Part shown: one piece after another, positions 2,677 to 62,836 of the stretch
Position numbering within the stretch: the first letter of the stretch is position 1
How the letters are laid out: every line of letters begins with the position of its first letter
NCBI GenBank assembly: GCA_049840435.1
Contig: JASGKY010000038.1
Span: forward strand, 25,333 to 89,332
DNA from: Verrucomicrobiota bacterium
GTDB taxonomy: Bacteria > Verrucomicrobiota > Verrucomicrobiia > Limisphaerales > JADLHS01
Direction: 5' to 3'
DNA: 64,000 bases
Translations under genes and position numbers: made by a program
The notes under the pieces: model-generated
What the model was told of the DNA's origin: nothing
Databases searched by the model: none
The model's input: only the letters and a program-made list of their open reading frames with translations

Positions 2677-2698
2677 CCCCGCCGCAAGAGCTGCCTTC

Positions 2699-4982: not shown

Positions 4983-5537
4983 TTACGGCGACTCCTCGGC
5001 TCGAAAATAGAGCGTGGGCACATTGGTCAACGCCATCCCACTAACCTGCAGCACGCCATTACTCAAGACAGGCAGGCCAGCGACTGGCTGCCAAGCATTG
5101 AACGGCAAAGTGACGTTAGTGCTGGAATAGAAATGGATTTTTGCGGCACGAATTGGCGTCAGTGGCGAACCATCCCCGGCGCTGGCGCGGAGAATGAGGT
5201 TGTTTCCACTGGTCTGCGGCAGATGCAGACGCAACGGACGAACATTCCAAGATCCTTCAATCGCCCGGAAAAACAGCGCGGGCGGGTTGGTTGGATTGAT
5301 GCCATCCACCATCAACAGACCGTTGGTCAACACCGGCGCAATCGCCAGCGCGGTCCAATTGCTCAAAGGCAGCATGACATTGGTGGAGGCATAAACCCAA
5401 ACATTGGAAGCGCGGTCAGGCATGATCGGACTGCCATCCACCGTGCTGATAAACAGGCGCACCCGCCCTGCGTTGAACTCGGGAGTTAGGAGTTTTAGTT
5501 GGGCTTGATTGAATCCCAACGTCAGGAGCAATTGCAC
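4983..5537 (-). CDS. Two tandem ~85-aa beta-sandwich-like repeats, most likely the detached C-terminus of the upstream giant protein
   Basis: The 184-aa ORF has no signal peptide or RBS context and starts 9 nt after the giant ORF stop. Its frame stays open upstream across that stop. Internal repeat: GRVRLFISTVDGSPI...LLMVDGINPTNPPALFFRAIE versus NNLILRASAGDGSPL...VLQVSGMALTNVPTLYFRAEE. One extra C in the run at 5559-5564 would fuse it in frame. Confidence 0.6.
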   Translation of the reverse strand: MQLLLTLGFNQAQLKLLTPEFNAGRVRLFISTVDGSPIMPDRASNVWVYASTNVMLPLSNWTALAIAPVLTNGLLMVDGINPTNPPALFFRAIEGSWNVRPLRLHLPQTSGNNLILRASAGDGSPLTPIRAAKIHFYSSTNVTLPFNAWQPVAGLPVLSNGVLQVSGMALTNVPTLYFRAEESP

Positions 5538-5545
5538 GTTATTCG

Positions 5546-8500
5546 TTACGCCGAACGACCCCCCAAAATCGCCTCATCATTAAAAGGCGTGGTATCCAAG
5601 CTGGTTATTGCTCCGCCGATGGCAAACGGCTGCCCGGCTGCCTGCACCAGATTGGTGATGAAGGCAGCATTCAGATTCATGGTGATGAACTGATCCGCCT
5701 CACTCGTGGAAAAACTCCGGCTGCCATAAACAACGCCATCGGCCAGATCATTGAAGATGGAAACCAACCCGGTCCCGCCGGCCACCAACGTCGGTACCGC
5801 AGTGCTCACATGATGGAGTTGGAACGTCTCGCTCCCGGTAGCAGTAACGATGCTGTAAGTTTTGATCCGCAATTGCGCGGCCACCACCGGTCCAGGCAAA
5901 GCCGGAACATTGAAGGCAAACCAGTTTCGATACGGCGCATCCGTCGAATCCGAGGCGTCGCCGCAGATATAGTTCTCGTTGGCCGCATCGTGTCTGCCGC
6001 TGGCATCATACCAGCCAGTATCGAACGCGTAGAAGGAGACATTGGAACTGTACGGCAACACAGTCAATGCGGCGGCGGCGCTGTTCGTAAATCCATAGGC
6101 GTTACTGATCACAACGGAATAATTCCCGGCATTGGAATATTGCACGGCACTCAACGTATAACTGCTGTTGGTGGCCCCGGTGATAATGGCGTTGCCCTTT
6201 TGCCATTGATACCGCAATGGTGTACCGCCGCCGGCAAGCACATTGAAAGTGGCGGAACCGCCAACGGTAACCGTCAGGGACTGCGGTTGCGTAACAATCA
6301 CTGGCGGATTGCTGGCATTGATTGACAAGACTTCCAACAGGGCTCGCCGCAAGACTTCGTCCCAGCCGCCATCTTGAGTGCCCCGCGGCACCGCGTCGAA
6401 CCAATCATAGGCGAGGAACACGATCTTGCCGCTGCCCCGCGGAATCATAGCAACGGTCGTATAAAGTGCTCCACTATCCTGATAGATACTTAAACTCCCC
6501 GCCGGAAGACTGGATCGGAGCCATTCGTAGGTCCCACTATTCTCCGGCAGTGTCGCCGGACCGCCGTCAAACGCCGTACCAACAGCCGCCCCAGAGCGCA
6601 GCGAAGAACTACTCGAGGCAGCGGTGCTAACGCCATACCCGAACACCTGATTGACGAAATTCTCATCGCGACTTCCAGACTGACCGCAGATGATCAAGTT
6701 CCCGCCGCCGGAAACGAAATTGGAAATGATCCCCTTCGCTGCCACCGACAAAGCCGGAGCGAGATCGCCGATTTCCAATTCGGGAATCACAAGCAGCTTC
6801 GCACTCAGCAGTGCATTGGAGAACGTGGCGGGCGTGATCCCCGTGAACGATTGAACCTGACACCCCTTGGCAAACAACGCTGCCGTCAAATTCGTGACTT
6901 CACCCGAAGTGCTGCTGCCGGTATCCACATAAGTCGGATCGGCGAACAAACTAACGGTGACGGCATCATCATCTACGATGGTCAACACTGCATTGGATGG
7001 GGCCGTCAGCAGGACATTGGAGACTGTCAGGCTTAATGACAACAGAACCGTTTCCCCTCCCTCGCCCACAGCATCATTTATGATGGGGACTTGGAAGTTG
7101 GTGCTCAACACCCCGACAGGGAATTGCAGCGTGCCCGCGACCGCAGTGTAATCAACCCCGGCAGTGGCCGTACCGTTGGCGGTGGCATACTGCACACTTA
7201 AACTGTGGGCTGAATTCTCCCGCGTTACGGTGATCGTGGCCGCACCGCCACTCTCGGCCAAGCTGCTGCTCGCCGAGGCAAAATGCACCTCATCCAACGC
7301 AGTCGTGAATTGCCAGACCGCCCCAGTGACACTGCCGATCAAATTGGTCGCCACGACCTGCCAATAATATGTCGTGTCAAAGGCCAACAAGCCGGGACTG
7401 CAGGTGCTCTGCGTCAGATTACTGGCCAGTAATGGCAACGCCGCAGCATTCGTCCCGAAGTAAACATTAAACCAAACCCCACCAGCAATGCCTGTCGTAG
7501 CAAAAGCGCAAGCATTACTGAAAACCTGCAACTCGCTCGCATACGATCCAGTGCCATGCCCCACACTCGGATCCAGATTACTGTAAACCACCCGCCCAGA
7601 ACCAAACGAGCCAGCGAGTAACACCGGTCGCGTTGTGCTGTCGTTCACAAAAACCACCGACAGCCCGCCATTACTGGTAAAATCACCGTGCGAAGAATAG
7701 CTCCAGTTGTCCAACGAAGCGTCGGTGACTCCGGTGGCGATAGGATGCGTCGCGTCGGCAATCCCGATGGAATCGCTGTAAGGTGTATTACCCGCAGTGC
7801 TCACGACTCCTGGCGTCGGCACCCAGCTATAATCCAACGACGGATATCCGCCCCCCAGCTCCACGTAGAGCCCACCACCCGCCGCCACAAAATCAGAGAC
7901 TTTGGTTCGCGTCGCCGCATCCGGAGAAAAATATCCTGAAGAGGCGCTCCGGAATATCAAGAGATCCACCCCGCTGAACACAGCGCTGGTAAAATTACTA
8001 CCGGAGAGCACTGTGGCTCCGACGGTGGTAGCAGCGGCGGCGATAACCGAACTCGTCGGCCCAACCACCAGCCAGACCGGTGCGGAAGCCGAAGTCGTTA
8101 CACTGTTGCTTGAATCATTCCAAGCCAGTTGCGTATGAACCGAAACCCGGGAAGCAAAATTGGTCGGAACTGGATCAAATGGCGCTGCGGGCGGCAAAGG
8201 AATATCCACTGTCAGCGTGGCATTCGAACTGACGGTTGCCCCCCAGAGATTGGAAACGGCCACACTGTAAAGCCCCATGTCGTTGGTCGTCACATTGAGA
8301 ATCGTCAGTTGATTGGTGCGCGCTCCGGAAATGCGTCCACCGTCCACTAGATTAGTCCCCCCTTTCCGCCACTGGTAAACGAGGGGAGTGCTCCCGGTGG
8401 CGGTCACCCCAAACATCGCGGTTCCATCCAGTGCCACCAATTGGCTCACAGGCTGGGACGCGATGACGGGAGGATTACTGCTAATAAAGCTGAACTGGGC

Positions 8501-11500
8501 ATCGGCATAACCCAGCGTCTCGGACGAGCCTCCAAACTGACCGCTGCCTTCATAATGAAAGTACCATCGATTACGTGACGGCGACACTACGAAGGACGCC
8601 ATGTCAGAAAGACTCGTGAAAGTTGCGACGGCTGTAACCGCCCCATCCGGCACCCGGGCACGCACGATCCGTTGTGTTCCAGATTCGCGGTAGGTCAAAT
8701 ACAGCGTCCCCTCAAAATACTCGGTCACCCCCCAGATCGCCCAGCTTTCAGAACTGTACCATGCCGGTCGTGTCATCGCCCCCCGAGCAGTTACCGTCCC
8801 AGTCGGGAGATAAATATCATATACAGTCGTGCCATTATGAATCACGATTCTGCCGTAACCGGAAAAGATACCGGTCCCGGAACTCCCGGAGGATAGGGTG
8901 AAAGACTGCGATAGCGTCACCACCACGCCGCTCGGCGTCCCTGTGCTGGGATTAAGCTCGATCAAGGTGGTCACCGTGCCTCCTGCAGAGGTCAGGGGGG
9001 TGGAACCATTACCCAACAAGTAAACCGTCTCGGTTCGCAGGTCCGTGCAAAGACTATCCCGCACCAGCCCCACGCTGACACCTCCGGTAAGCCCCGCTGC
9101 CGCGAACCGTGCAGTTCCGCTGTCACCAGTGACAAAAGCCTGACTGGTAGAAATCGCGATGCCGCCGCGATCATCACCCGTCAGTACATCGTGATCCACT
9201 ACCTTGCTATTGTTGGTCAGCAACGCGGTGATTTTGAATTCGGGCGGGCCTTCGTTATCGAAGATGATACCCACGCCATTGGATTTTCCGAGCTCAGCAT
9301 TGACTGGCGCGGAGAGTACCAAGGAAAAAGTTTCGTTCGGCTCGGCCAGCCCATCATCCAGCACCCGGACGAAAACAGATTGATTCGTCTGGCCGGGGGC
9401 AAAATTTAATGTTCCATTGGTACTCGCATAATCGGCCCCGGCGCTTGCCGTGCCGTTGACGGTTGCAAAATTGACTGTCACGACTTGCGCACTGGCAACG
9501 GACAGACTCACGGTGAACTCCAGATTGGTGTCACCGCCGGCATATTCCGTAACGCTTGTGTCATTGATGGAAAGCACGGGCATCACCACCAGCGTGGTAT
9601 TCGTTGCCACATTGTTACCGGCATAATTATCCGGGCCAGACCGAGACACCGTCGCGATATTGGTGAGAACACCAATAGCCACCGGGGTGACGATGATGTT
9701 CATGCTGGCCTGAGCGCCAGCGGCAATGCTGCCAAGATTGCCCACGACCAGCTGGCCATTGGTGCTGACTGAACCTTGACTGGCCGTGGCAGACAGCAGC
9801 GTCGCCCCGAAAGGAAGTGTATTGCTTACAACAATCCCCGCCGCCGCCGAAGGGCCGGAGTTTGTAACAGCAATCATGTAAGTCAAATTCGCTCCGACTG
9901 CCACAGGATCTGAGCTGTCGGTGACGGCCAAGCCAACATCATCATACCAGCCCACCGCAAACGCTCCGCTGCTACCGACATGTCCGTTGGCATCAGAGGC
10001 GCGAAGCAAAACATTGGTGGCAACTTCCAGCGCAGTCAAACTCCCGCTCCAAACGCCATTGGTAAATACGCCCGTCAGCACGGATGACAACGGAATGATC
10101 TGACCTGGCGCACGAATCAACTGGAGATTCGGTGTGTAGGAAGTCGCATAAGGAGACGGCGAGCTGCCAGTCCAAGTCAGCGGATTTCCAAAACTGCTGG
10201 TGTAGTAATACAGAGTGCGGGCCGCGCTTCGGGCCGAGCAACGGACTGCACCGGAGCCATACGTAATGGAATTATTGAAACTGAAATCAAGCATGAGACT
10301 GTTCGTGCCATCGTAGTCAAACGGGGTCGCGAGATAGAAGACGGCCCAGCCAGTGGTTGTGAGATTCAGATTGGTTTGCTGAACCGTCGTCCAATCAGTG
10401 GATTCCCAGAGATAACTCGAGTAATTCGTCAGCGTCGTGTGCTTGATGCGGATGGTCCAGCTGTTAAGTTCAATCCCGGGAAGGCTGGCCACGTCCAGTG
10501 CAAGCGCCACGATTCGCCCCGCCCCGCCCAGTTCGCCTGCCGGATAAATCACCTGGGTTCTTTCAGTCGCGTATCCCGTGTAGAACGGGAAGCTGTACGT
10601 CACAGTGTCAGTCCCCAAGATATTTGTACCGCCTTCGCCAGTAGCGGCGCTCAAAAAGGCTGGGCCATTAAAATTCACCGCCGGATTATTGAAGGCATCC
10701 AACGCGGTAAGCGTGACCTCAAACGGATGGTTCACATACTGCGGACTGGCAATGGGACTCCAAACAAACCGATCAACATCACCGGGCAGGCCATCATCAT
10801 TCATGATGAAACCGAACCCTTCGCGTTTCAGCAACGTCGCGTTTCCAGCGCCGGACAAATCCAGATAGAAGACTTCATCCCCCTCGATTTGCAAATCACC
10901 ACTGACGCTAATGACGATATTAGAACTGACAACACCGGCGGGAATCGTCAAGGAACCACTCAGACCCGTATAATCGCTGCCACTGATGGCGTTGCCATTC
11001 TCTGTATAATAATTGACCGTGGTCGCCAACCCGCTGGCGGCCGACAAAGTAACCGCAAATGCGGCATTGGTCGTACCGCTATTTCCTTCGACCAAAATCA
11101 CGTCGCCGATCGAAATCGTCGGCATGGCGTCATCATTGCGAATTGTCCCGATGCCTTGGCTGTCCGCCAGCGTAGCATTCACCGCTCCAGAAAGATTCAC
11201 CGTAAAGCTTTCTTCCAACTCATAGGCCGCGTCGCCAACTGTTCGGACCACGAAACTTTGGTTCGTTTCGCCAATCGCAAAACTCAACACCCCATTCGTC
11301 GCGATAAAATCTGTCGGGGAAATGGCCGAACCGTTGGCGGTGGCAAAATTCACAGTCACGGCCGCGGCGGGTGCAGGCGTCACCGACACCGTAAACACCG
11401 CGTTGGCAGTGCCAGCATTTCCTTCGAACAGCGTCACGTCATTGATCCGGATTACCGGCACTTGCACGGACGTAAGGGTACGGTTTGAATTATTCAGCGA

Positions 11501-14500
11501 ATAGGCGTCCGCCTCCAATCGCGTCACTGTAGTCAGATTGGTCAACGTGCCAAGATTCGTGGCGGTGGCCACTATGGACAACGTCGCCGCCGTGTTGCCG
11601 CCCATATTTAGTAGATTGCAAACCACCGTTTTCCCAAAGACCTGGACCGAACCTTGTGAGACTGTCGCGGAGACAAACGACACTCCGGGTGAAAGTGCAT
11701 TCGTCACCACTACCCCGGTCGCCGCCAGCGGGCCGATGTTGGTCACGCTGATCGCATACGTCACATTACCGCCAAGGCTGACCGGGTCGGGAGATTCTTG
11801 CACTCCCACCGCAAGATCATTTCGCAATTCCACCGCAAATGGATTGCTTACTCCGACATGTCCGCTGCCATCATCGGCGCGGAGCACCAGATTTGTTGTC
11901 GGCGCCGCAACCGTCACCGCTCCAACCCAAGCCCCGTTGCTGAACGGCCCAGAACTGACGGGTTGAATCGGAACTGCAAGAGCAGCATTTACGGTGTAGC
12001 GCAGATCACACAGAAAAATACTCGTATCACTGTTGTAAAAAGTATCCGGAAACGTATCCCCATTGGCGTAATAATACCCATTTACGATGGAGCCATATGG
12101 AAAGGTGGTGGGCCGGCTCGTACTGTAATAGTATGTGCCGCCATTCACGTAGAACGAAACCCGGTACGTGTTCCCCGCCAGCAGCACCAAAGGTGTGACA
12201 AGTGGCGTTTCAGTCCAGATGCCTTGCGTACCACTGACGTTTTGACTCGCCAACAAGGTGCCGGCATTGCTCCAAATCGAGACTTTCACCCCCGCAACCG
12301 AGCGAACATGTGTAACCGTCAGATTGGTCGCCGGCGTGAACGCGTAGCCCAGCGTGTAGTTGCCCGTGCCCGAATAATCAGGCGTCTGCGTGGTCAAGAG
12401 TGTATTTGTCGCCGTTCCACCACTGCTCGAACTCGTAAAATTGACCGACCCGATGAAGTTGCTGACCGTCGTCTCAAAGGCATCCTTGGCGGTGAGCTTC
12501 ATCGCAATCGGTTCATTGACATATTGCGGCGAGCTCACGGCGTCCCAAGTGAAATGATCCACTCCACGCGTGGTAAACTGCCACACCGGTCCTGGTGTGA
12601 CGCCAGCCTTACGGGCGACAATCCGCCAATAGTAAGTGGTTTGCGGCATCAGCAACGGCAAGGCCCAGGTCGTACTCGTAGTGCTCCCAATCAACTCCGC
12701 CGCGCCTGGTGTAGGCGTGGTACCGAAATAAACATCGTTTGTGATGGTCTCGCCAAGGACGGCGCCGGATTGCCACGCGAGATCGACGGTCTGAATCACA
12801 TTGGTCGCCAAATGCGGTGGAGCGGGGCTAAACGGCTCGAGTGGCGATTCATCATCCGTAATCATCAGGTTGGTCGAGCCAGTAGAAAAACCAGCCGCAC
12901 TAGCAACCACTGTCACGATCTGAGCACTGTCAATGTCAGTATCATCAACGATGGTCAAATTGAAGAGGGCATTGGTCTGTCCGGCGAGAATTGTGACCAC
13001 TGACGGCACAACCAATTCCGTCGCGTCCAAGGACGAAAGCGAAACTGGAAGATTGGTTGTCAATGTGCCAGCAATCCGCACCTGCCCGGCCCCGGCTAAG
13101 ACACCATTGCCTTCGCGGGCTGAGGCTGGCAACAAGACCACTAGATTGGTTGGTTCGTTATCCTGCACGATCACATTGGTAAAGCCTGTAGTCCAATTGG
13201 TGACGGAAGCGGTGATGGTCACCGGTTGCGGACCATCTATCTGTTTGTCATCAACCACGGTCACAGTGAATCCAGCTGAAGTTTGTCCAGCGGCAATAGT
13301 GGCGTAAGGCGAGACCAGCAGTTCGGTCGGATCACTCGCGCTGAGGCTGACTTGGATGTTCGCCGTCGGCGTCGGGCTTACACTCACGCTTCCAACCAAC
13401 ATCGTGCCGCTACCTTCCGTCAAACTCGCGGGTGCAGACACCGAAAGTGTCGCGGTTTCGTTATCCAACACAGTGATGGCAGCATCCGCGCTGGCATAGC
13501 CGCTGGCGGTGGCATGCAACGAGACCGCCTGCCCCCCATCAAGTTCCATATCATTTACAATGGTCAGGTTAAACGCAGCGTTCGTCTGTCCGGCGAGAAC
13601 GGTTACCGTTGCAGGCGTGGTCATTTCAGTTGGATCACTCGAAGTCAGGAGGACTGTCAAGTTGGTGGTTGGTGCCGGAAGCGCCGTTACCAGCCCGCCG
13701 ACTGTTCCATCCCCCTCCGTGGCCAAAGACGGAATGGTAAGTCGCAAAATTGTGGCCGGAGTGGCATCAATGGAAACACTGTCAATCGCCCAGTGGTCGT
13801 AGCCGGAGCCGCTGTGACTTTTTTGCCGCCACTGAAACATGGTTGCCGGGCCACGCGCGTTCACCGGAATAGCCGATGTCACCGCCGTCCAGTTGTAATA
13901 AGCTGTGGTGTCATAGCTGCCAAGAATCACCCACGAGACGCCGGCATTCGTAGAGGCCTCAAGCACGACACCTTCGTCGGGCAAGGCGTCCGCCATTTCC
14001 CAAGGCGAAGAACTGCCATTGGCCAGCCGGATCGAAAATCCGAGCCCGCCGCCACCAGTAGTATCAATGGGAATCGTCCGGGCAAACCGATTGCCGGAAT
14101 CGCCGAACCAGAGCGAATTGGGAGCCGATACCGCCCCCCCGTTATTATTCGCGATCACCGTGCTGCCAACCGTGCCACCAAAGGCCGACCACTGCGAGGC
14201 ATCCAAGCTTGGATCGAAATCATCGGACATGGTCCGCCCCACTACATTCAAGGAAACCGTGCGGGCTTGCACAAAGCTGGTGTTCTGATTGGAAAACCAG
14301 AGTGTGACGGTGTGGGTGCCGAGCGGCAGGCTGTTGGCAGCCGCACCAATCGTCGCTAGCACAGTGTTAGCAGGCCCACCCGGCATCAACACGCCACTGG
14401 TCGGCGTCACGCTCAGCCAAGCTGACGTATAGCTCAAAGACCAGCTCAAGCTAGCATTGCCCGTATTCGTGAGCCCAAATGAAACCGGGTTCGGACTGAA

Positions 14501-16714
14501 CGGACCGCCCACGGGCCCGGCTGCCATCGCCGCCAAGGTGGGGAGAATAGACAGATCATCCGGCACATCGAACGCCTCCACCAATCCAACCGTCGTGGAA
14601 CTGGCCGGCGACGTGGCGCTGAACCCCATCCCGCGCTTTGCAAAAGCCGACCAGAGTTCGGGCAAATTTGCCCCGCCATGATTCACCACATCAGCTTGGA
14701 GAATGGCGTCGCGAGCTTGCAGAAAATTTGGATTGGCCGGCGAGAGATTCATACCGTCGGTAACCAACTGAAGAATCATCTGGTTGCCGACCGCGTGACC
14801 GTATTTCGTGATCAAATTGGCGCGCGCCTCCCACAACGTCGCACACCAGACTTCGCCCTGATTGTGCACTTCATCCGCCGTGCTGCCGATAATCGGGCTG
14901 CGCGGCACACCCGCATGAGCGCTGGCCTGAACCGGATCAATGTCCCGGAACGTCAGGGGATTCTTGGTCAAATCCGTGCAATAGGGATAGCGGCGGATGC
15001 CGTAGTAATAATTCTGCGTCAACCCGCCGAATTGATAGGTCGCATAAGCGCCAGCAGCATAAACGCCATGCACGTCATCTCCGGCTTCACTTAGCAACGT
15101 CAGCCCGTACCAGTCCGACCAGCCCTCGCCCATGCCCCGAGATTGCAACGCGCTTAATCCCACGCCCCCACCGACCCGGCGATTGCTCAGCCCATGCGTG
15201 TATTCATGCAGCACGATCTCATGATCGAAATCGCCATCCCGATCCGGTGTCGACCCGGTAAACACATACATCTGCATCCGGGGCGCACTACCGTCTGAAG
15301 GCGTGGACATGTTGGCGTTGTCCGTCCCGCTGCCATCTTGAGCGTCTGCCTGCAACGCATCGTTACCCAGTCCACCCCGGCCGAAATTGTCATTCTGAAA
15401 ATTCCCCGCCGCCTCCGTGAATCCCAAGGCATACAATTTATCATGCATCCAGTTGCACCAGTAGAACAGATCCGTCACCGCCGCGTTGGGATAGGTGCTC
15501 GGCGCCTGGGTTAGGTTGGCGGTGAAATCAAAGGTGCGAAAAGGCGATCCCTGCGGCCGCGGCAGGTCGGGAGAATTATTGGCATCTTGATCCGTATGGG
15601 CGTCCACGTTGTTGCCCCGGGTCTCGTTGCCCCCATCATCAATCCACCCGCTGGGCGACGCATTTGTGTCCACCGCACTCAACGTGAGCAACACGGACGC
15701 CAGTTCCGGTGGTTGCGTGGTGCAAGGCGTGGAACAACTCGGTGAAAACGGCGCGGGACTGTCGCTGAGATAAACCCGATAGCTGGCGTCGCTGATGTAC
15801 TCCGTTAACCGATGGCGGATGAGCACCTCGCCATCGTCCACATCCACAAGCAGCCGGTACATTTCGCCCCGCGCCCGGCTGGTCAGTTGCACATCCCAGC
15901 ATAACCGCAGCGTGTCCTCCGTAAGCGGCAACCATATTAAACGGGTTTCCGCCGGCTCGGCCAACGGCGGCGCGGTAAAACGCTGTTTCTGCTCAGCCGT
16001 GAACGTCGTCTCGTCGATTGGTTTTACGTTCTCATCCTGCAATGTTTCGCCAAGATTCCGGACCGCCAGCCCAATGGCTTGAGCCGCGGTGACCGTCGGG
16101 ATTTGCCGCGTAGCCACCAAGCTCCGTGCTTTGTCCCCAGCATGCAGGGCCGGAGTCGGAACAAACTGAGAGGCCACGCTGACCAGCTCTCCGCGTTTTG
16201 TCGTATGGGAAGTGAAGACGGCTTCATAAATTGAAATGCCTTCTAGTTCCTGCTCCCACACCACCGTGGTCAACCCATTGTGCGGCGTCACAAACTCCCG
16301 CTTCACACGGGCCTGTTCCAGCGCTTCGGGACCAAAACCAAACAACGTGGCGTGTTCCCGCACGAACGCCTTGGTCGGCAGGTGCGCCACATTAGTCGCA
16401 AAGGTCGCCACAGTTTGCGCGGCCACGCTCCGCCCTTGTCCGTCTGGACCGGTAAGAAATCCGCGGGCGTCTCGAATCCATTTCGCATGTGGCCGCTCGT
16501 TTGCAACAACCCGAACCTCCGGCGTCTGCGTCTTCAGGGTCGCCAATGCCGCGACAGCTTCGCCTTTGACTTCGGTTGTGCCCCCCGTTGACCGGCGATC
16601 CAAGTTAGGCAGCTCTTCATGTGTGGGCGGCAAGATGGCTGGAGTCTGTCTGGCGATCAGACAAAGTAGCCCCATGAGAGTAAATCTGATGGCAGTTCCG
16701 AAAATGGTTTTCAT
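5546..16714 (-). CDS. Giant secreted multidomain protein: N-terminal M36 (fungalysin-type) zinc metalloprotease followed by >3000 aa of Calx-beta, DUF11/CARDB-like, FN3-like and I-set Ig adhesin modules
   Basis: 3722-aa uninterrupted ORF with signal peptide MKTIFGTAIRFTLMGLLCLIA and an FTP/PepSY-like propeptide region. The catalytic core has HEYTHGLSNR (aa 503-512) and GEGWSDWY. Downstream are three tandem Calx-beta-like repeats (aa ~987-1289), FN3-like units ending TTYYWR(I/V)VA, two DUF11-like + Calx-beta modules (VTVNFATANGSA... and VTVNFATVNGTA...) and two I-set Ig domains (NPPVIASQP...YQWRKGG and NPPVIVTQP...YQWQKGN). Confidence 0.9.
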   Translation of the reverse strand: MKTIFGTAIRFTLMGLLCLIARQTPAILPPTHEELPNLDRRSTGGTTEVKGEAVAALATLKTQTPEVRVVANERPHAKWIRDARGFLTGPDGQGRSVAAQTVATFATNVAHLPTKAFVREHATLFGFGPEALEQARVKREFVTPHNGLTTVVWEQELEGISIYEAVFTSHTTKRGELVSVASQFVPTPALHAGDKARSLVATRQIPTVTAAQAIGLAVRNLGETLQDENVKPIDETTFTAEQKQRFTAPPLAEPAETRLIWLPLTEDTLRLCWDVQLTSRARGEMYRLLVDVDDGEVLIRHRLTEYISDASYRVYLSDSPAPFSPSCSTPCTTQPPELASVLLTLSAVDTNASPSGWIDDGGNETRGNNVDAHTDQDANNSPDLPRPQGSPFRTFDFTANLTQAPSTYPNAAVTDLFYWCNWMHDKLYALGFTEAAGNFQNDNFGRGGLGNDALQADAQDGSGTDNANMSTPSDGSAPRMQMYVFTGSTPDRDGDFDHEIVLHEYTHGLSNRRVGGGVGLSALQSRGMGEGWSDWYGLTLLSEAGDDVHGVYAAGAYATYQFGGLTQNYYYGIRRYPYCTDLTKNPLTFRDIDPVQASAHAGVPRSPIIGSTADEVHNQGEVWCATLWEARANLITKYGHAVGNQMILQLVTDGMNLSPANPNFLQARDAILQADVVNHGGANLPELWSAFAKRGMGFSATSPASSTTVGLVEAFDVPDDLSILPTLAAMAAGPVGGPFSPNPVSFGLTNTGNASLSWSLSYTSAWLSVTPTSGVLMPGGPANTVLATIGAAANSLPLGTHTVTLWFSNQNTSFVQARTVSLNVVGRTMSDDFDPSLDASQWSAFGGTVGSTVIANNNGGAVSAPNSLWFGDSGNRFARTIPIDTTGGGGLGFSIRLANGSSSPWEMADALPDEGVVLEASTNAGVSWVILGSYDTTAYYNWTAVTSAIPVNARGPATMFQWRQKSHSGSGYDHWAIDSVSIDATPATILRLTIPSLATEGDGTVGGLVTALPAPTTNLTVLLTSSDPTEMTTPATVTVLAGQTNAAFNLTIVNDMELDGGQAVSLHATASGYASADAAITVLDNETATLSVSAPASLTEGSGTMLVGSVSVSPTPTANIQVSLSASDPTELLVSPYATIAAGQTSAGFTVTVVDDKQIDGPQPVTITASVTNWTTGFTNVIVQDNEPTNLVVLLPASAREGNGVLAGAGQVRIAGTLTTNLPVSLSSLDATELVVPSVVTILAGQTNALFNLTIVDDTDIDSAQIVTVVASAAGFSTGSTNLMITDDESPLEPFSPAPPHLATNVIQTVDLAWQSGAVLGETITNDVYFGTTPTPGAAELIGSTTSTTWALPLLMPQTTYYWRIVARKAGVTPGPVWQFTTRGVDHFTWDAVSSPQYVNEPIAMKLTAKDAFETTVSNFIGSVNFTSSSSGGTATNTLLTTQTPDYSGTGNYTLGYAFTPATNLTVTHVRSVAGVKVSIWSNAGTLLASQNVSGTQGIWTETPLVTPLVLLAGNTYRVSFYVNGGTYYYSTSRPTTFPYGSIVNGYYYANGDTFPDTFYNSDTSIFLCDLRYTVNAALAVPIQPVSSGPFSNGAWVGAVTVAAPTTNLVLRADDGSGHVGVSNPFAVELRNDLAVGVQESPDPVSLGGNVTYAISVTNIGPLAATGVVVTNALSPGVSFVSATVSQGSVQVFGKTVVCNLLNMGGNTAATLSIVATATNLGTLTNLTTVTRLEADAYSLNNSNRTLTSVQVPVIRINDVTLFEGNAGTANAVFTVSVTPAPAAAVTVNFATANGSAISPTDFIATNGVLSFAIGETNQSFVVRTVGDAAYELEESFTVNLSGAVNATLADSQGIGTIRNDDAMPTISIGDVILVEGNSGTTNAAFAVTLSAASGLATTVNYYTENGNAISGSDYTGLSGSLTIPAGVVSSNIVISVSGDLQIEGDEVFYLDLSGAGNATLLKREGFGFIMNDDGLPGDVDRFVWSPIASPQYVNHPFEVTLTALDAFNNPAVNFNGPAFLSAATGEGGTNILGTDTVTYSFPFYTGYATERTQVIYPAGELGGAGRIVALALDVASLPGIELNSWTIRIKHTTLTNYSSYLWESTDWTTVQQTNLNLTTTGWAVFYLATPFDYDGTNSLMLDFSFNNSITYGSGAVRCSARSAARTLYYYTSSFGNPLTWTGSSPSPYATSYTPNLQLIRAPGQIIPLSSVLTGVFTNGVWSGSLTALEVATNVLLRASDANGHVGSSGAFAVGWYDDVGLAVTDSSDPVAVGANLTYMIAVTNSGPSAAAGIVVSNTLPFGATLLSATASQGSVSTNGQLVVGNLGSIAAGAQASMNIIVTPVAIGVLTNIATVSRSGPDNYAGNNVATNTTLVVMPVLSINDTSVTEYAGGDTNLEFTVSLSVASAQVVTVNFATVNGTASAGADYASTNGTLNFAPGQTNQSVFVRVLDDGLAEPNETFSLVLSAPVNAELGKSNGVGIIFDNEGPPEFKITALLTNNSKVVDHDVLTGDDRGGIAISTSQAFVTGDSGTARFAAAGLTGGVSVGLVRDSLCTDLRTETVYLLGNGSTPLTSAGGTVTTLIELNPSTGTPSGVVVTLSQSFTLSSGSSGTGIFSGYGRIVIHNGTTVYDIYLPTGTVTARGAMTRPAWYSSESWAIWGVTEYFEGTLYLTYRESGTQRIVRARVPDGAVTAVATFTSLSDMASFVVSPSRNRWYFHYEGSGQFGGSSETLGYADAQFSFISSNPPVIASQPVSQLVALDGTAMFGVTATGSTPLVYQWRKGGTNLVDGGRISGARTNQLTILNVTTNDMGLYSVAVSNLWGATVSSNATLTVDIPLPPAAPFDPVPTNFASRVSVHTQLAWNDSSNSVTTSASAPVWLVVGPTSSVIAAAATTVGATVLSGSNFTSAVFSGVDLLIFRSASSGYFSPDAATRTKVSDFVAAGGGLYVELGGGYPSLDYSWVPTPGVVSTAGNTPYSDSIGIADATHPIATGVTDASLDNWSYSSHGDFTSNGGLSVVFVNDSTTRPVLLAGSFGSGRVVYSNLDPSVGHGTGSYASELQVFSNACAFATTGIAGGVWFNVYFGTNAAALPLLASNLTQSTCSPGLLAFDTTYYWQVVATNLIGSVTGAVWQFTTALDEVHFASASSSLAESGGAATITVTRENSAHSLSVQYATANGTATAGVDYTAVAGTLQFPVGVLSTNFQVPIINDAVGEGGETVLLSLSLTVSNVLLTAPSNAVLTIVDDDAVTVSLFADPTYVDTGSSTSGEVTNLTAALFAKGCQVQSFTGITPATFSNALLSAKLLVIPELEIGDLAPALSVAAKGIISNFVSGGGNLIICGQSGSRDENFVNQVFGYGVSTAASSSSSLRSGAAVGTAFDGGPATLPENSGTYEWLRSSLPAGSLSIYQDSGALYTTVAMIPRGSGKIVFLAYDWFDAVPRGTQDGGWDEVLRRALLEVLSINASNPPVIVTQPQSLTVTVGGSATFNVLAGGGTPLRYQWQKGNAIITGATNSSYTLSAVQYSNAGNYSVVISNAYGFTNSAAAALTVLPYSSNVSFYAFDTGWYDASGRHDAANENYICGDASDSTDAPYRNWFAFNVPALPGPVVAAQLRIKTYSIVTATGSETFQLHHVSTAVPTLVAGGTGLVSIFNDLADGVVYGSRSFSTSEADQFITMNLNAAFITNLVQAAGQPFAIGGAITSLDTTPFNDEAILGGRSA
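12848..13756 (-). repeat. Three tandem ~100-aa Calx-beta-like domain repeats (protein-level repeat, diverged at DNA level)
   Basis: aa ~987-1289 of the giant ORF. R1 is LTIPSLATEGDGTV...AGQTNAAFNLTIVNDMELDG...ITVLDNE. R2 is SVSAPASLTEGSGT...AGQTSAGFTVTVVDDKQIDG...VIVQDNE. R3 is VVLLPASAREGNGV...AGQTNALFNLTIVDDTDIDS...LMITDDE. Confidence 0.6.
15194..15208 (-). other. Zinc-binding HExxH motif (HEYTH) of the M36 protease domain
   Basis: The reverse complement reads cat gaa tac acg cat (aa 503-507 of the giant ORF), within ...DFDHEIVLHEYTHGLSNRRVGG... Confidence 0.85.
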
Positions 16715-17074
16715 GATGAATTTCTGATCGGCCGCTTGCGCAGGATTATCAGCGGGCCCTAACTCACATACTGAATCCCGTAGAAGTTGCCCCGTGTTCG
16801 GTTTGAACTGTTAAAACAGGCTCCACCAGGCTTGTCAAACTCAATCCAGCCTAGCCGGTTAACACAAGGTTTGCACCAGAAGCAAAACCGCATCTGCCCA
16901 AGCCCTTTCTTTAAAGATTGGATCGAGTGATAAGTCACATTGCCGTTACTTTTATGCCCCGGACAGTTCCAACGGATCGCAATCTTTGCATTTGTCCCGG
17001 AAGAAACATTGACGTCGGCGAGCAATCGAGTTTACTCCCCGGCAGTTCGTTGGCTTCAGACTTTAAAACTGATC

Positions 17075-17824
17075 ATGAAACTCGTCCGTTGGACTACTTT
17101 GCGACTATTTGCGTTGGGTAACGCCCTGACACTCACCTCGGCTGTGGCTCAATCCTTCACCGCCACGTATGATTTCGCCCAAGTGAACACCAGTTCCGGA
17201 ACGACCGATCCCACGCCGCCACCAAGTGTCGTCGGCGTCACATTTGGTTCATTTAGTTCCACCGGCATGTCAGCCAACCCTAATGCCACCGTGCGTTTCT
17301 CCTTCACGTCACAACCACTTGGAGGCGTCAATGCCAGTGATGATTTCACGCAATTCACCGGCAGCCTCACGCCAACTGCCTACTTCGAGGTCGCAGTCAC
17401 GCCATTAAGCTTGGTGCAACTGCAACTCGATTCCATTGCGTTCACCGTCCAACGCTCCGGGACGGGCATCCGCAGCTATGCGGTGCGTTCCAGTCTGGAT
17501 GGCTATGCCGCCAATCTCGCCGCCAGTATCAGCACCGCCAACGCCAACCTCGGTGTCGGACCGGGCAATGAATTTCGCGTGCTGCTAGATTCCGTGACCA
17601 CGGCGCAGAATGGCAGCTTGGTAACCTTGGGGACGCCGTTCATCGGCCTTACTGCCCCGGTGACGTTCCGGTTTTACGGTTGGAATGCCGAAGGCACGGG
17701 CGGCACGTTCAGCGTGGATAATGTTGTCTTCAGCGGACGCACGGATAGCGTTCCCGAACCCAGTGCGACAGTTTTGCTGCTTGGAAGTCTGGCAGCTTTT
17801 GGCTTTTCTCAGCGGCGCCGTTAG
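17075..17824 (+). CDS. PEP-CTERM sorting-domain secreted protein
   Basis: Likely start is MKLVRWTTLRLFALGNALTLTSAVA (ATG 17075, signal peptide). The C-terminus VPEPSATVLLLGSLAAFGFSQRRR* is a PEP motif, a hydrophobic helix and an Arg cluster, i.e. an exosortase sorting signal. Confidence 0.85.
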   Translation: MKLVRWTTLRLFALGNALTLTSAVAQSFTATYDFAQVNTSSGTTDPTPPPSVVGVTFGSFSSTGMSANPNATVRFSFTSQPLGGVNASDDFTQFTGSLTPTAYFEVAVTPLSLVQLQLDSIAFTVQRSGTGIRSYAVRSSLDGYAANLAASISTANANLGVGPGNEFRVLLDSVTTAQNGSLVTLGTPFIGLTAPVTFRFYGWNAEGTGGTFSVDNVVFSGRTDSVPEPSATVLLLGSLAAFGFSQRRR

Positions 17825-21935: not shown

Positions 21936-21940
21936 CAGAA

Positions 21941-25596: not shown

Positions 25597-25597
25597 T

Positions 25598-38400: not shown

Positions 38401-38526
38401 GCGTTGTTAATTTAGGTTCCGTGATGAGATGAGTCAAACCTGATTCCGGACGACCGCCGAGGCAATACACATAAAAAATCCATTAGAAACGCTTTGCTCC
38501 TTCAGTTGTCTCGCTATAACTCCCCT

Positions 38527-40111
38527 ATGGACCGTATCCTAGCCGGTTTGCTTTTCCTCGGGCTCGTCGCCAACGCGTCCGCAGCGCAATTCGATACCAT
38601 CATCCGCCATGGCCGCGTCGTGGATGGCTCTGGCAACCCCGCTTTCTTCGCCGACGTCGCCATCAAAGACGGCCGCATCGTCCAAATCGGCAAGGTTACC
38701 GGCACAGCAAACAAGGAGATCGACGCCACAGGCCTCATCGTCGCGCCGGGCTTCATTGACGTCCACACTCACGCCGATGAAGTCGGCGATGCCGACTCCA
38801 AACCTTTTGAGCGACGCGCCGAAAACTTCCTCCGCATGGGCGTCACTACTCTCGTCGTCGGCAACTGCGGTGGCTCGGCCCTGAACGTCGCGAAATTCTT
38901 CGATGCCGTCGCCACCAATGGCATCTCGCCCAACGTCTGCACGCTCATCGGCCACAATACCGTCCGCGAGAAAGCCATGGGCGGCAGCTTCGATCGCCCA
39001 CCCACGACTGAAGAACTCGCCAAAATGAAAGGCTACGTCGAACAAGCCATGAAAGACGGCGCCGTCGGCCTCTCCACCGGCCTCATTTATCTCCCCGGCA
39101 CATTTTCCAAGCCCGACGAAGTCGTCGAACTCGCCAAAGTCATCGCGCCCTACGACGGCATTTACGCCAGCCACATGCGCCACGAAGACACCCAGATCTT
39201 CTCCGCTCTCGACGAAGTCTTCCGCGTCGCCCGCGAAGCCAAAGTCCGTGCCGAAGTCTCCCACATCAAGCTCAGCGGCGAGAAATCCGTGGGGACAAGC
39301 CGACAAAGTCCTCGCTTACCTCGATGCCGCCCGCGCCGAAGGCCTCGATATCACCGAAGATCAATACGCCTACACCGCTTCTTCCACCACGATGCGCCAA
39401 CTCATCCCCGACGACGCCTTCGATGGCGGCAAAACCAACTTCAATTCGCTCCTCGAGAATCCCGAAGAGAAAGCCGGCCTCGTCATGCGCATGAAACAGA
39501 AGCTCGATGCGCGCGGGCGCAAAGATTACGCCTACGCCGTCATCGCTTCCTACCGCCACGACCCTTCCCTGAACGGCCTCAACATCGTTGAAGCCACCAA
39601 GAAAGTTCGCGGCAACGACTCGCTCGGCGACCAGATCGAGATGATCCTGGAAATCGAGAAGAACGGCAGCGCCAGCGGCGTCTTCCACGGCATGAACGAA
39701 GAAGACCTCCAGAAATTCATGCAGCACCCCAACACCATGATCGCCTGCGACAGCGGATTACGCGAGTTCGGCAAAAGCGTTCCTCACCCACGCGGCTACG
39801 GCAACAACGCCCGCGTCCTGGGACGTTACGTGCGCGAATTAAAAGTCCTCCGCCTCGAAGACGCCATCCGCAAGATGACCAGTTTACCCGCCAACACCTT
39901 TCGCCTGAAAGACCGCGGCCTGCTCAAAGAAGGTTTCTGGGCTGACATCACCGTCTTCGACCCCGCAAAAGTCAACGACCCCGCCGCCTTCAACGACCCG
40001 CACCACTACGCCACCGGCATCCCGTATGTTTTAGTGAACGGCATCCCCGTCATCGCTAACAGCGAACACACCAGCGCCAAGCCCGGCCAGGGATTAAAAC
40101 ATCGCCCTTAA
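38527..40111 (+). pseudogene. D-aminoacylase (N-acyl-D-amino-acid deacylase, amidohydrolase superfamily), one frame break as assembled
   Basis: Signal peptide MDRILAGLLFLGLVANASA and metal site GFIDVHTHAD. ORFs 38494-39591 and 39248-40111 join at ...SHIKLSGEKS/(W or V)GQADKVLAYLDAARAEG..., with one extra nt at 39289-39294 (ccgtgggg). 1585-1 nt = 528 codons. Confidence 0.82.
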
Positions 40112-42529: not shown

Positions 42530-43198
42530 TTAATTTTTTGTTTTGGCCCCATTTAAATCAGTTGCCTCGCCATGATCGGCGACGGCATACGAGGCGAGAG
42601 TCGTGAGCCCTTCCTTGGTCTGCTGAAAGCCGGTTTCGGTATTGAGCGCCACGGTTTCCAGTTCGGTGCGCAGTTTGCCGAGCCGCAATTCCATCTCACG
42701 CAGCGCCAGCCCGACCACCCGCCGATCCTCGGTGCGCCGTTCCTCGTTCAGCTTCGAGTAATCGGTGAGCAGTCGGATCAATTCGGCGCGCACGGACGCA
42801 TCAAGTATCGTGACTGGCGTCTTGTTGTTGTACTCCATGAGTTGTGCCACGGTCGCTTTCAATTCCGCGACTTCCCGGCCATGTTGCGAACTGATTCGTC
42901 CAACAGCAAAGCCCACACAGAGCACCAGCGCCGCCGCCACCGCCCAGCGCAATAGCACCGCCGGCGGCCAGGCGACCGGCTTTCGACATAGCGCCGTCAC
43001 CTTCCAATCATCCAAGGCTTTTATGCTCGCGCGCCATTCATTCAATTGCCGTCCGCAGGGCGAACAATTGGCCAGATGTTGGAACAGCTCTTCTTTGCGC
43101 TCGGCTGTAACCTCGTCATAGAGGTAAGCCGTCCATTCCTCTTGGTTGGGATGATTCAGCGTTGTTGCACTGCGTGATGATGATTCTTGTGATTGCAT
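42530..43198 (-). CDS. Anti-sigma factor (zf-HC2-like N-terminus, one TM helix, coiled-coil exterior domain)
   Basis: 222 aa: H...C..C motif (ELFQHLANCSPCGRQLNEW) and TM helix RWAVAAALVLCVGFAVG. It overlaps the sigma gene 3' end by 43 nt. Confidence 0.7.
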   Translation of the reverse strand: MQSQESSSRSATTLNHPNQEEWTAYLYDEVTAERKEELFQHLANCSPCGRQLNEWRASIKALDDWKVTALCRKPVAWPPAVLLRWAVAAALVLCVGFAVGRISSQHGREVAELKATVAQLMEYNNKTPVTILDASVRAELIRLLTDYSKLNEERRTEDRRVVGLALREMELRLGKLRTELETVALNTETGFQQTKEGLTTLASYAVADHGEATDLNGAKTKN

Positions 43199-43806
43199 AC
43201 ATTCTCCTCGTTCAAGTGATTCAACCGCCGGTTCAATTGCCCTAAAGCCTCGGCCATGCGCGATTTCACCGTGCCCTCCGGGATACCTAGGACCTCGCCG
43301 ATTTCGCGGAACTTCAGCCCTTCGTAATGCCGCAGCACAACCACTTCTCGATATTGCGGCAACAACTCCGCCAGCGCCCGGCGCACCTGCTCCCCGCGTT
43401 CCTGCGTCTCGGCGTGCGCATCGGGCGCAGGTTCGTCCGCTACGAAGCGCGTTTCCCCGCCTCCGTCCGCGTCCTCCAAGGCGTCCAAGGAAAACTCACG
43501 CCGACGTTGCTGCTGACGTGCTTCGTCATGACAGAGATTCAACGCGACGCGCCACAGGAACGTGGAAAATTTCCCCACTGGCTCCCAGTCAGCACGCCGC
43601 GTGAACACCCGGGTAAAAGCCATCTGCGTCAAATCCTCCGCCCGATGGGCATCGCCCGTCATTCGCAGACAGAGCCGACGGATGGGGAGTTCCCAGCGGC
43701 GGACGAGTTTGGTGAACGCCAGAGCATCGTCTTGTAGCTTCACACGCCACATCAACTGCTCGTCGCTGATTGTAAACAGCGATGTCAGCAAACGGCCCAT
43801 GTGCAC
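43156..43806 (-). CDS. ECF-type RNA polymerase sigma factor
   Basis: Region 2 (AEDLTQMAFTRVFTRRADW...FSTFLWRVALNLCHD) and region 4 (YREVVVLRHYEGLKFREIGEVLGIPEGTVKSRMAEAL). Confidence 0.88.
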   Translation of the reverse strand: MHMGRLLTSLFTISDEQLMWRVKLQDDALAFTKLVRRWELPIRRLCLRMTGDAHRAEDLTQMAFTRVFTRRADWEPVGKFSTFLWRVALNLCHDEARQQQRRREFSLDALEDADGGGETRFVADEPAPDAHAETQERGEQVRRALAELLPQYREVVVLRHYEGLKFREIGEVLGIPEGTVKSRMAEALGQLNRRLNHLNEENVCNHKNHHHAVQQR

Positions 43807-49092: not shown

Positions 49093-49340
49093 TGGTTCAC
49101 TTCTACCCGGCCTAAGCCGCAGCAGAAGTCGGACAGCCTATCTTGCCGCCATACATCGTCAAGAAGCAGCTGTAGAATCCCCGCTGTGTCTCCTCAGAAT
49201 TTGACTGCGCCAACAAAGCTTTCCCCTTGCCTGTCGCACTGACGCCAGAAACAATCCAGTCCGTTCTGCCGCACTAGATTCACCCGCGGCAATTGAGTGG
49301 ATTAAACAATCCACGCCGGCGTTCGTCCGTTATCCGTTCC

Positions 49341-61599: not shown

Positions 61600-61603
61600 C
61601 GCA

Positions 61604-62836
61604 TCAATCTCCATCAGGTTTGTTTGAATCAACAGCTGGACTAGCCGGCATCGCGAATCGATCGGATGCATCCGGATGCGCGGGATCAAAAATTTCCACA
61701 TCAGCAGCGAGGAACTTCGCTAGTGCCGGCACGTTCTGCCGGATACCCTCCACCACGCACCGCGCCAGCTCATAACTGCCGTAGTTGTTATGATGCGTTC
61801 CATCCTGAAATGCCTTATCAAGATTCGGGCCGAGCGCACGATAGAAAACCTTGCTCGTCGCATGCAGATCAATCAACGCCACGCCGTCTTCTTTAGACAC
61901 ATCGCGCACCGTCTGTGGATAACCCGCCAGCGTGTCGCGCTCAACACCAGCCTTGCGCTCCATCGAAGTCACCAACACCGGAGTCGCGCCACGCTCCCGG
62001 GCCTGCTGCACAATCTTCTTCAAATTCGACTTGTAGGTCGCCAGCGCGTTCGTGGCTTTATCCTTCATATCGTTGTGGCCGAACTGCACCAGCAACCAGT
62101 CGTTCGTCTTCATCACGCTGAACACCTTATCGAAGCGTTTCGCCCCGAGGGAGCTCTTGATGGACTCGCCGGACTGCGCGTAGTTCGCCACCGCGATGCC
62201 CGACCCGAAGAAGCGCGGCAACATCTGCCCCCAACTGTTCCATGGCTCACGCGGCTGATCGCACACAGTGGAATCGCCGGTGAGAAAAATGGTCGGCACG
62301 TTTGTCGGCGTGATTTCCAGCGCGCGCAGGGCCGGATGATTGCCAAGAAACTCCAGCGTGAGTTTGTCATCCCACGTGATCATCTCCGTCTCCAATTCGC
62401 GCTTCTTCAACTTTACCCGCCCGCTGGAAGCAAATTCCGGGCGACGCACATTCACGGTGAAGGTCCGCGTTACAGTTCCACCGGGCGCGATTGTCACGCG
62501 CTCTAGCATGAGTCGCCGCGCCTCGGCTTTGATCGTCAGTTCTGACGATGCCGTTCCGCCCAGCGTGACCGCGACCGAATAATTTCCCTCCCGCAACCCC
62601 GCCGAGAAGGAAAACGGCTGATCGCCGGAAATGAAATCTTTCCCGCCAGTAAGGTGGACAGGATTTTCAAAACCGAAGCCGCTCTCCACCGAATACTGAT
62701 TGGTCGGAGACATCTGTATCCAACCAGGGCGGGCCTGATCGTTACCAAAACTCAATTTATATCGCCCCTGCTCCGCATCCGCCAAACCAGCCAGCGGCAA
62801 AGACAGCACCGCCAGCCATTGAATCGTCTTTTGCAT
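61604..62836 (-). CDS. Rhamnogalacturonan acetylesterase-like SGNH hydrolase (CE12-like) with an N-terminal beta-sandwich domain
   Basis: Signal peptide MQKTIQWLAVLSLPLAGLADA. SGNH blocks: IFLTGDSTVCDQ (block I), GHNDMK (block III), DGTHHNNYG (block V). It sits in pectin context. Confidence 0.8.
   Translation of the reverse strand: MQKTIQWLAVLSLPLAGLADAEQGRYKLSFGNDQARPGWIQMSPTNQYSVESGFGFENPVHLTGGKDFISGDQPFSFSAGLREGNYSVAVTLGGTASSELTIKAEARRLMLERVTIAPGGTVTRTFTVNVRRPEFASSGRVKLKKRELETEMITWDDKLTLEFLGNHPALRALEITPTNVPTIFLTGDSTVCDQPREPWNSWGQMLPRFFGSGIAVANYAQSGESIKSSLGAKRFDKVFSVMKTNDWLLVQFGHNDMKDKATNALATYKSNLKKIVQQARERGATPVLVTSMERKAGVERDTLAGYPQTVRDVSKEDGVALIDLHATSKVFYRALGPNLDKAFQDGTHHNNYGSYELARCVVEGIRQNVPALAKFLAADVEIFDPAHPDASDRFAMPASPAVDSNKPDGD

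Follow-up and report, generated by a model that had tools for sequence, protein, structure and literature searches.

The closest described relatives of the gene reported here are the fungal fungalysins (MEROPS family M36), such as Mep of Aspergillus fumigatus (PDB 4k90) and Mpr1 of Cryptococcus. They have a signal peptide, an FTP propeptide and a catalytic domain with the motifs HExxH and ExxxD, and they stop after that domain, at about 390 amino acids (aa) in the mature form. To our knowledge, bacterial M36 peptidases are essentially unstudied. NCBIfam distinguishes three families in which an M36 head is followed by a C-terminal extension and a sorting domain, namely NF038113 (type IX secretion system, T9SS), NF038112 (myxosortase, a model of 1604 positions) and NF038111 (rhombosortase, 1315 positions). 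We analysed 64,000 nucleotides of contig JASGKY010000038.1 from a Verrucomicrobiota bacterium; this whole 64-kb stretch is called the window, and all coordinates refer to it. It contains an 11.7-kb gene whose product is built on the same concept as the three families and is like the fungalysins in its FTP propeptide, its catalytic domain and a putative signal peptide (read by eye), but adds about 3200 residues of modules and a terminal domain, called the tail domain below. We consider it likely that the locus is the gene for a giant secreted M36 zinc metalloprotease zymogen, carried on a glycan-binding stalk and ending in a candidate sorting or retention tail.

The gene consists of an open reading frame (ORF) of 3722 aa with an ATG start on the minus strand (5546..16714) and, 8 bases downstream on the same strand and in another frame, an ORF of 184 aa with a GTG start (4983..5537). 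Because 3722 sense codons follow one another without interruption in DNA of ~57% G+C, the large ORF cannot be a product of chance, and homology is strong along its whole product. An exact look-up of the 3722-aa product returned no match. Joined, the two frames give a protein of 3719 + 191 = 3910 aa. An earlier note on this DNA, made from the letters alone, had described a single giant ORF of about 3910 aa if joined, and the coordinates and the translation agree with it. Scans for promoters and terminators at either end of the gene gave no useful signal.

The start codon and the next residues, to aa ~25 (MKTIFGTAIRFTLMGLLCLIA...; 16640..16714, minus strand), look like a signal peptide when the translation is read by eye. 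Equivalent hydrophobic N-termini, followed by a conserved LPN[FL]D[RK]R, occur in the homologues P0025, P0067 and P0071, which makes an N-terminal signal peptide plausible. The propeptide region follows at aa ~26-341 (15692..16639, minus strand). It holds an FTP motif at aa 135-184 (PF07504, E 5.5e-5, 23.4 bits against a cutoff of 21), and the NCBIfam M36 models begin to align at aa ~102-137. The head had been sketched in the earlier note as signal peptide, FTP/PepSY-like propeptide and M36 core; Pfam bears out FTP and the core, PepSY was undetected in the protein, and the signal peptide is a reading by eye only.

The catalytic domain spans aa 342-715 (14570..15691, minus strand) and was delimited by PF02128 and by alignment to 4k90. 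Peptidase_M36 (PF02128) matches aa 342-700 at E 9e-115 (384.2 bits against a cutoff of 23.3; profile positions 18-368 of 368), and the A. fumigatus enzyme aligns over ~360 aa at E 9e-74, with HEYTHGLSNR and GMGEGWSD in register. M36 enzymes are gluzincins, in which zinc is bound by both histidines of HExxH and by the glutamate of ExxxD (PMC6117016). In the giant, HExxH is H503-E504-Y-T-H507, aligned to HEYTH of 4k90, and ExxxD, with the third zinc ligand, is E530-G-W-S-D534, aligned to GEGWSD (aa 529-534, or 529-536 with the following WY); the downstream histidine is H617. The residue numbers given earlier for HEYTH (aa 503-507), and the GEGWSDWY motif, are correct. With the zinc ligands H503, H507 and E530 and the catalytic E504 all in place, the M36 active site is complete and the enzyme is predicted to be active.

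A conserved domain at the C-terminal end

Pfam and NCBIfam scans of the giant found no LPXTG, PEP-CTERM, T9SS tail or autotransporter barrel, and the PEP-CTERM models PF07589 and TIGR02595 matched neither the giant nor the downstream ORF. The head aligns to the three NCBIfam families at E 1e-95 to 1e-118, but their three tails are absent. For NF038113 the score was 397 bits against the required 885, only the head was aligned (profile 26-407 of 869), and no T9SS tail was detected at E<=1; for NF038112 and NF038111 the scores were 393.7 against 1500 and 320.8 against 1700, with no MYXO-CTERM or GlyGly-CTERM tail. The earlier statement that there is no obvious anchor is therefore right for the known anchor types, but it overlooked a conserved and almost exclusively C-terminal domain in the last 173 aa.

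This stretch holds the 85-aa tail domain twice, with 46% identity between the copies. Copy 1 (85 aa, ...PPALFFRAIEGS) lies at 5250..5504 on the minus strand and copy 2 (...VPTLYFRAEESP, plus the stop codon) at 4983..5240 on the same strand; profile A1 finds them with i-E values of 8e-43 and 5e-40, respectively. The final copy ends in ...LYFRAEESP and then the stop codon, which is the terminal motif R-[FY]-[FY]-R-A-x-E-x-P, and it is joined to the giant only if the frameshift discussed below is corrected. Even at E<=1, neither Pfam nor NCBIfam has a family that matches the tail domain. Profile A1 was built from nine tail-domain copies and searched against 1.84 billion representative proteins, in which it matched 645 proteins at E<=1e-3 and 163 at E<=1e-10. 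Among the top 150, all but one of the 129 single-copy matches ended within 7 residues of the C-terminus. After re-scoring, 145 of 148 proteins had a tail copy that ended no more than 7 residues short of the C-terminus, and the consensus was T-N-x-P-x-R-[FY]-[FY]-R-A-x-E-x-P. The carriers range from fragments up to 3743 aa, and the passengers include M36 giants, a giant with an S8 subtilase and P-domain, a BACON-repeat protein and a cadherin-like protein. A related tail of the form ...[FY]YR[VLA]xxxP is found at the end of many further verrucomicrobial M36 giants. An AlphaFold2 (AF2) model of the tail domain (pLDDT 90.9) is an FN3/Ig-like sandwich.

The strict terminal position, the motif running to the free carboxyl end and the unrelated passengers together make the tail resemble a sorting or retention domain. 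Strict C-terminal position and many unrelated passengers are also what characterize the C-terminal domain (CTD) of T9SS cargo and the PEP-CTERM/exosortase system, and the T9SS CTD, a beta-sandwich of ~80-100 aa, is similar in size to the tail domain. On the other hand, the tail matches neither of them in sequence (Pfam, NCBIfam) or, above noise, in structure, and it is without the transmembrane helix and the basic tail of PEP-CTERM. We know of no T9SS outside the Bacteroidota/FCB (Fibrobacteres-Chlorobi-Bacteroidetes) group. We tentatively suggest that the 85-aa tail with its R-[FY]-[FY]-R-A-x-E-x-P motif could be the recognition domain of an undescribed sorting or surface-retention pathway of Verrucomicrobiota, functionally like the T9SS CTD or PEP-CTERM, with giant stalked proteases (M36, S8) and adhesin-like proteins as its cargo.

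The domain in front of the tail is a penultimate domain of ~185 aa with a jelly-roll fold like that of carbohydrate-binding modules (CBMs). It lies at 5505..6052 (minus strand), across the frameshift, and was delimited by homologue alignment A2, AF2 and Foldseek. Its best structural neighbour is a chondroitin-sulfate-binding CBM (8wab, E 1e-7, TMt 0.64), with an alginate-binding CBM (7vbo) also among the neighbours, and no Pfam or NCBIfam family matches it at E<=1. The same domain is the sole domain of proteins of ~230-300 aa (P0009, P0010, P0011, P0013, P0014), where it stands between a signal peptide and a PEP-CTERM-like end; in P0009, P0011, P0013 and P0014 it immediately precedes a PEP-CTERM anchor. 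This domain type thus occurs beside whatever anchor a protein uses.

If the reading proposed for the locus is right, Sec would export the giant as a zymogen, and the propeptide would fold, inhibit the head and then be removed autocatalytically, as in the fungal fungalysins. The head would remain on its stalk, whose glycan-binding-like modules could dock the protease onto glycan-rich proteinaceous material. Assuming ~4 nm per module, the stalk may be roughly 80-100 nm long. The tail domain would act at the outer membrane, either in export across it or in retention there, and the protease would thus be held far from the cell.

Several points weigh against this reading. Export, propeptide cleavage, activity and localisation are proposals made from sequence features. 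The CBM assignment has TM-scores of 0.5-0.65 at ~13% identity. The fold of the tail is a generic FN3/Ig one, for which Foldseek against the PDB gave a best E of 0.15 and no match to a T9SS CTD. Profile A1 finds only one tail-bearing gene in the 64-kb window, no partner sorting machinery was identified for the tail, and the tail could be simply another terminal binding module. Moreover, in a related population (L001-L006) the syntenic orthologue, which lies beside the same upstream nuo genes, is likewise uncoupled from its tail. The generic fold without a match to a known sorting domain and the lack of any dedicated machinery among our results, together with a C-terminal end that has neither a transmembrane helix nor a lipid-anchor motif, would suit a protease that leaves the cell freely, through type II secretion for instance, and whose C-terminal domains are ordinary substrate-binding modules. 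Such free secretion is possible, but we regard it as doubtful. If the tail were a binding module, one would expect neither its place at the extreme C-terminus in 145 of 148 carriers nor the conservation of R-[FY]-[FY]-R-A-x-E-x-P as far as the free carboxyl end among passengers that are unrelated.

The frameshift and the remaining alternatives

The case for a sorting or retention tail on this protease presupposes that the two ORFs form one gene. They lie in different frames, a -1 shift apart, and can be joined only through an indel of one base. The likely site is a G6 homopolymer at 5559..5564 of the minus strand (C6 on the plus strand), just ahead of a premature TAA at 5546-5548. The main frame ends ...ATT TTG GGG GGT CGT TCG GCG TAA, and from 5573 onwards the downstream frame is open. 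The insertion of a single G into the run (or a -1 slip) joins the ORFs as ...EAILGGSFGVTNNVQLLLTLGFNQ... into the 3910-aa protein. The corrected stretch (...EAILGGSFGVTNNVQLLLTLG / ...LGGSFGVTNNVQLLLTL) then matches ...FGGSFG--LNAQLVLDV of P0009 in alignment A2, and other homologues as well.

A search with the fused end found P0001 at 76% identity and 100% coverage, as well as P0003, P0005 and others, all of them continuous across the junction. Altogether 12 homologues are continuous there (P0001, P0002, P0003, P0005 and P0007-P0014), with the junction inside a conserved domain, and so are the full-length P0025, P0067, P0071 and L017. The last strand of the penultimate domain (NNVQLLLTLG) is encoded in the downstream frame, and in an AF2 model of the fused 361 aa (pLDDT 83) this post-frameshift strand, residues 178-186, belongs to the penultimate domain. 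Since homologues read through and the strand is shared, the earlier suggestion that the 184-aa ORF is the C-terminus of the giant is borne out.

The frameshift may be a sequencing or assembly indel, which we favour, or a real lesion, and there are points on both sides. It sits in a homopolymer, and a second gene in the same 64 kb is split as well. This is an Amidohydro_3 gene on the plus strand, with profile positions 1-206 in 38494..39591 and 382-471 in the overlapping 39248..40111, and a junction near 39285; deleting one G in 'tccGtgggga' would restore ...EKSWGQADKVL..., at a site outside any homopolymer. Four other M36 giants from metagenome-assembled genomes (MAGs) are split into overlapping frames (L008 1031-7604, L021 9950-17801, L027 9818-15509 and L043 1859-5765). 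It appears that giants of this type are often frame-split in assemblies, and annotation should merge the 'small downstream ORF' with them. A scan of metagenome contigs for exact DNA matches to the G-run with its flanks (G6, or G6 plus any one base, including G7) returned no match.

If the frameshift were real, the cell would make a tail-less 3722-aa protease. The gene would then be decaying or truncated, and its product, with a broken penultimate domain, would be either released or misfolded and degraded. The sequence as given does contain the stop codon, and the syntenic orthologue (L001-L006) has independently lost frame continuity with its tail. In that orthologue (e.g. L002 4314-10696) an ORF of 1896 aa is followed by an overlapping ORF of 231 aa (ATGA overlap). 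It is collinear with aa 180-2038 of the giant at 69% identity and then jumps, out of frame, to aa 3679-3918; the internal deletion of ~1620 aa (aa ~2040-3660) with its out-of-frame junction is found in six assemblies from different samples. The Amidohydro_3 frameshift outside a homopolymer fits real pseudogenes or a generally error-prone assembly. However, the downstream frame of the giant is open for 191 codons, is 71-76% identical to intact homologues and keeps both tail copies complete, so any lesion is either very recent or not real. The homopolymer context and the recurrence of frame-splits in MAG copies, of which L021 and L027 come from long-read assemblies as inferred from their contig names, also speak against a lesion, and on this evidence we think a truly broken gene rather unlikely.

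Two further alternatives carry very little weight. The G6 run could be a programmed -1 frameshift or phase-variation site that yields a tail-less, released protease beside a tailed, retained one, and G_GGG_GGU formally fits X_XXY_YYZ with a 0-frame stop 12 nucleotides later; but no stimulatory RNA structure lies downstream (z -0.86), the split is not conserved in that the close homologues P0001 (76% identity), P0025 and L017 are in frame, G6 is short for slippage-based phase variation and G-only heptamers are poor frameshifters, and we set this explanation aside as very improbable. Equally improbable is a pure adhesin with an inactive pseudo-protease for a head, for which nothing speaks beyond the adhesin-like stalk, while HExxH, ExxxD with the third zinc ligand and the downstream histidine, the residues on which the earlier note had made such a verdict depend, are present and both PF02128 and the AfuMep structure are matched end to end.

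The stalk and its nested modules

Self-comparison, Pfam and NCBIfam scans of the whole protein and of segments, and targeted alignments resolved about 25 modules after the catalytic domain. The earlier note had counted about 30; the module types it named (Calx-beta, DUF11, I-set Ig and unrecognised domains) were found again, and the two 'FN3-like' modules are without a Pfam or NCBIfam match and are recognised by self-similarity and motif only. Pfam finds four Calx-beta stretches, two DUF11, two Ig/I-set, BACON_2 and Reelin_subrepeat-B in the giant.

From the head outwards, and all on the minus strand, the stalk begins with a BACON_2-like Ig domain (aa 744-810; 14285..14485; PF19190, E 4e-9 in the isolated segment) and a Reelin subrepeat-B-like domain (aa 858-982; 13769..14143; PF21471, E 8e-24). 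Three uncatalogued modules of ~101 aa follow in tandem (aa 983-1290; 12845..13768), with 41-50% identity and E 1e-10 to 1e-22 in self-BLAST, and then an FN3-like module (aa 1295-1384; 12563..12832) recognised by its similarity to aa 3083-3138. The next is an Ig-like module X (aa 1385-1422 and 1581-1625; 11855..12562) with a nested insertion that holds DUF4082 (aa 1444-1562; PF13313, E 4e-10); the two halves of module X align to an uninterrupted copy in P0067. DUF11 (aa 1621-1739) and two Calx-beta domains (aa 1741-1860 and 1864-1977) occupy 10784..11854 according to Pfam, TIGR01451 and self-BLAST. A second Ig-like module, X' (aa 1980-2022 and 2203-2249; 9974..10777), identified by self-BLAST and alignment, carries a nested insertion of ~180 aa without a known family, and is followed by DUF11 (aa 2259-2373) and Calx-beta (aa 2378-2491) at 9242..9973 (Pfam, self-BLAST). 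The stretches aa 1385-1977 and 1980-2491 are an old segmental duplication.

Beyond the duplication lies a conserved module of ~250 aa without a family (aa 2492-2745; 8480..9241; VVDHDxLTGDDRGGIAxS...RWYFHYEGSGQFGG), which recurs, sometimes twice, in P0025, P0067, P0071 and the S8-headed P0139. An Ig I-set domain (aa 2749-2836; 8207..8470; PF07679, PF13927) precedes an FN3-like module (7301..8197) whose aligned halves (aa 2846-2869 and 3096-3138) are split by a nested ThuA-like domain (aa ~2895-3060; PF06283, E 1e-7, 32.8 bits, slightly below the cutoff of 33.4). The stalk continues with the best-scoring Calx-beta stretch in Pfam (aa 3143-3250; 6965..7288), a ~215-aa module without a family (aa 3251-3465; 6320..6964), which is conserved in P0001 and P0139 and has a weak Glyco_hydro_42M match (E 0.1), and an Ig domain (aa 3470-3552; 6059..6307; PF13927, PF13895). 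The 101-aa repeats, the FN3-like modules, the 250-aa module and the X' insertion have no Pfam or NCBIfam family at E<=1. Domain-in-domain nesting occurs in three cases, DUF4082, the ~180-aa insertion and the ThuA-like domain, each in a loop of an Ig-like or FN3-like host.

The earlier note had worried that a repeat-rich ORF might be mis-assembled. In DNA the gene is not repeat-rich: it has no tandem repeats, and the sole direct repeat family is 37 nucleotides long with at most 84% identity. Repeats are thus nearly absent at the DNA level, which makes assembly collapse or expansion unlikely, and the internal repeats of the protein are only 37-50% identical, so we set mis-assembly across repeats aside. 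As to function, nothing in the analysis speaks to the contact-dependent proteolysis of prey or host that had been suggested; the annotated modules (BACON, DUF4082 and the CBM-like penultimate fold) point to glycan binding.

Relatives, genomic surroundings and significance

The M36 head matches at least 486 related stretches in GTDB species genomes. The best matches are 50-62% identical and effectively all from Verrucomicrobiota, with Acidobacteriota, Planctomycetota and Bacteroidota next at 35-40%. We fetched 37 verrucomicrobial M36 loci, most of which encode ~1300 to >4100 aa, and the giants share BACON_2, Reelin-B, DUF4082, DUF11, Calx-beta and Ig modules. P0025 (3743 aa, intact, on a 74-kb contig) is collinear with aa 14-3063 at 61% identity and with aa 3446-3828, and L017 (3375 aa, intact) has the same Pfam architecture together with the penultimate and tail domains. 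These two, as well as L007 (3831 aa), L041 (4072 aa), P0067 and P0071, agree with the giant of the window in head, module repertoire and module order. The tail family is shared by all of them except L041, whose C-terminal end is a different tail. Unlike the gene in the window, the counterparts are uninterrupted ORFs and mostly have one tail copy, and module number varies among them by block insertion, deletion and duplication.

The search for homologues with an M36 head and Calx-beta/Ig modules that the earlier note had proposed thus yielded many in Verrucomicrobiota MAGs, and the combination of head and stalk is not unusual as had been thought, since same-module M36 giants are common in the phylum and include the intact counterparts of 3743 and 3375 aa. 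Judged by these sequence comparisons, an M36 head on a long stalk is a recurring, unstudied design in Verrucomicrobiota, and the novelty here is the uncatalogued tail. No experimental study of these giants was found in the searchable literature, which also yielded nothing relevant on M36 proteins or sorting signals of Verrucomicrobiota or on the terminal motif; the myxosortase preprint does not mention M36.

Three observations on the relatives may be added. P0139 (3377 aa, from a Logan assembly) has a subtilase S8 head with P-domain, Reelin-B, Ig, DUF11, Calx-beta, 250-aa and 215-aa modules and the same tail, so that protease heads appear to be interchangeable on a shared stalk. The contigs of L007 and L028 are titled 'uncultured Bifidobacteriaceae bacterium' despite their verrucomicrobial-type M36 giants, which is probably a binning or taxonomy mislabel. 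In Pyrinomonadaceae (Acidobacteriota), L046 (9560-18577) and L047 (6222-14863) each have two tandem M36 genes of ~1350-1530 aa. At least the first gene of each pair ends in a repeat that resembles FG-GAP/VCBS (GDYDGDGKxD) when read by eye and had no library match; on that reading, the C-terminal end is a different solution from the verrucomicrobial tail.

Upstream of the giant, on the same strand, lies the nuo operon (17842-28246). Between them a divergent gene on the plus strand (16940..17824, likely start near 17075) encodes a small secreted PEP-CTERM protein (PF07589, TIGR02595), which indicates that the organism has an exosortase-type system, unused by the giant protease. Downstream of the giant are genes for an enzyme dependent on pyridoxal phosphate and for aspartyl-tRNA synthetase, and none of the adjacent genes suggests an operon partner. 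Elsewhere in the window are an extracytoplasmic function (ECF) sigma/anti-sigma pair (42530..43806) and a polysaccharide-degradation cluster (49293-63985) with a PL4 rhamnogalacturonan lyase (49293..51407), GH95 (56814..59219), GH2 (59179..61701), a GDSL esterase with a galactose-binding domain (61604..62836) and a C-terminal fragment of GH2 at the window edge. The PL4, GH95, GH2 and GDSL esterase genes fit a verrucomicrobium that breaks down polymers.

In soil and water, Verrucomicrobiota play a major part in the breakdown of complex glycans and glycoproteins, and the biogenesis of their surface proteins is poorly understood. If the proposed reading is true, proteases on very long glycan-binding-like stalks would represent a distinct way to attack insoluble or matrix-embedded protein, and if, beyond that, the tail is the recognition domain of a new sorting or retention pathway, M36 peptidases would gain a fourth 'choice of anchor' besides T9SS, myxosortase and rhombosortase. 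In practice the useful outcome is the tail domain itself: unlisted in Pfam and NCBIfam and represented by hundreds of proteins, it is strictly C-terminal and provides a testable candidate for a sorting signal in Verrucomicrobiota.

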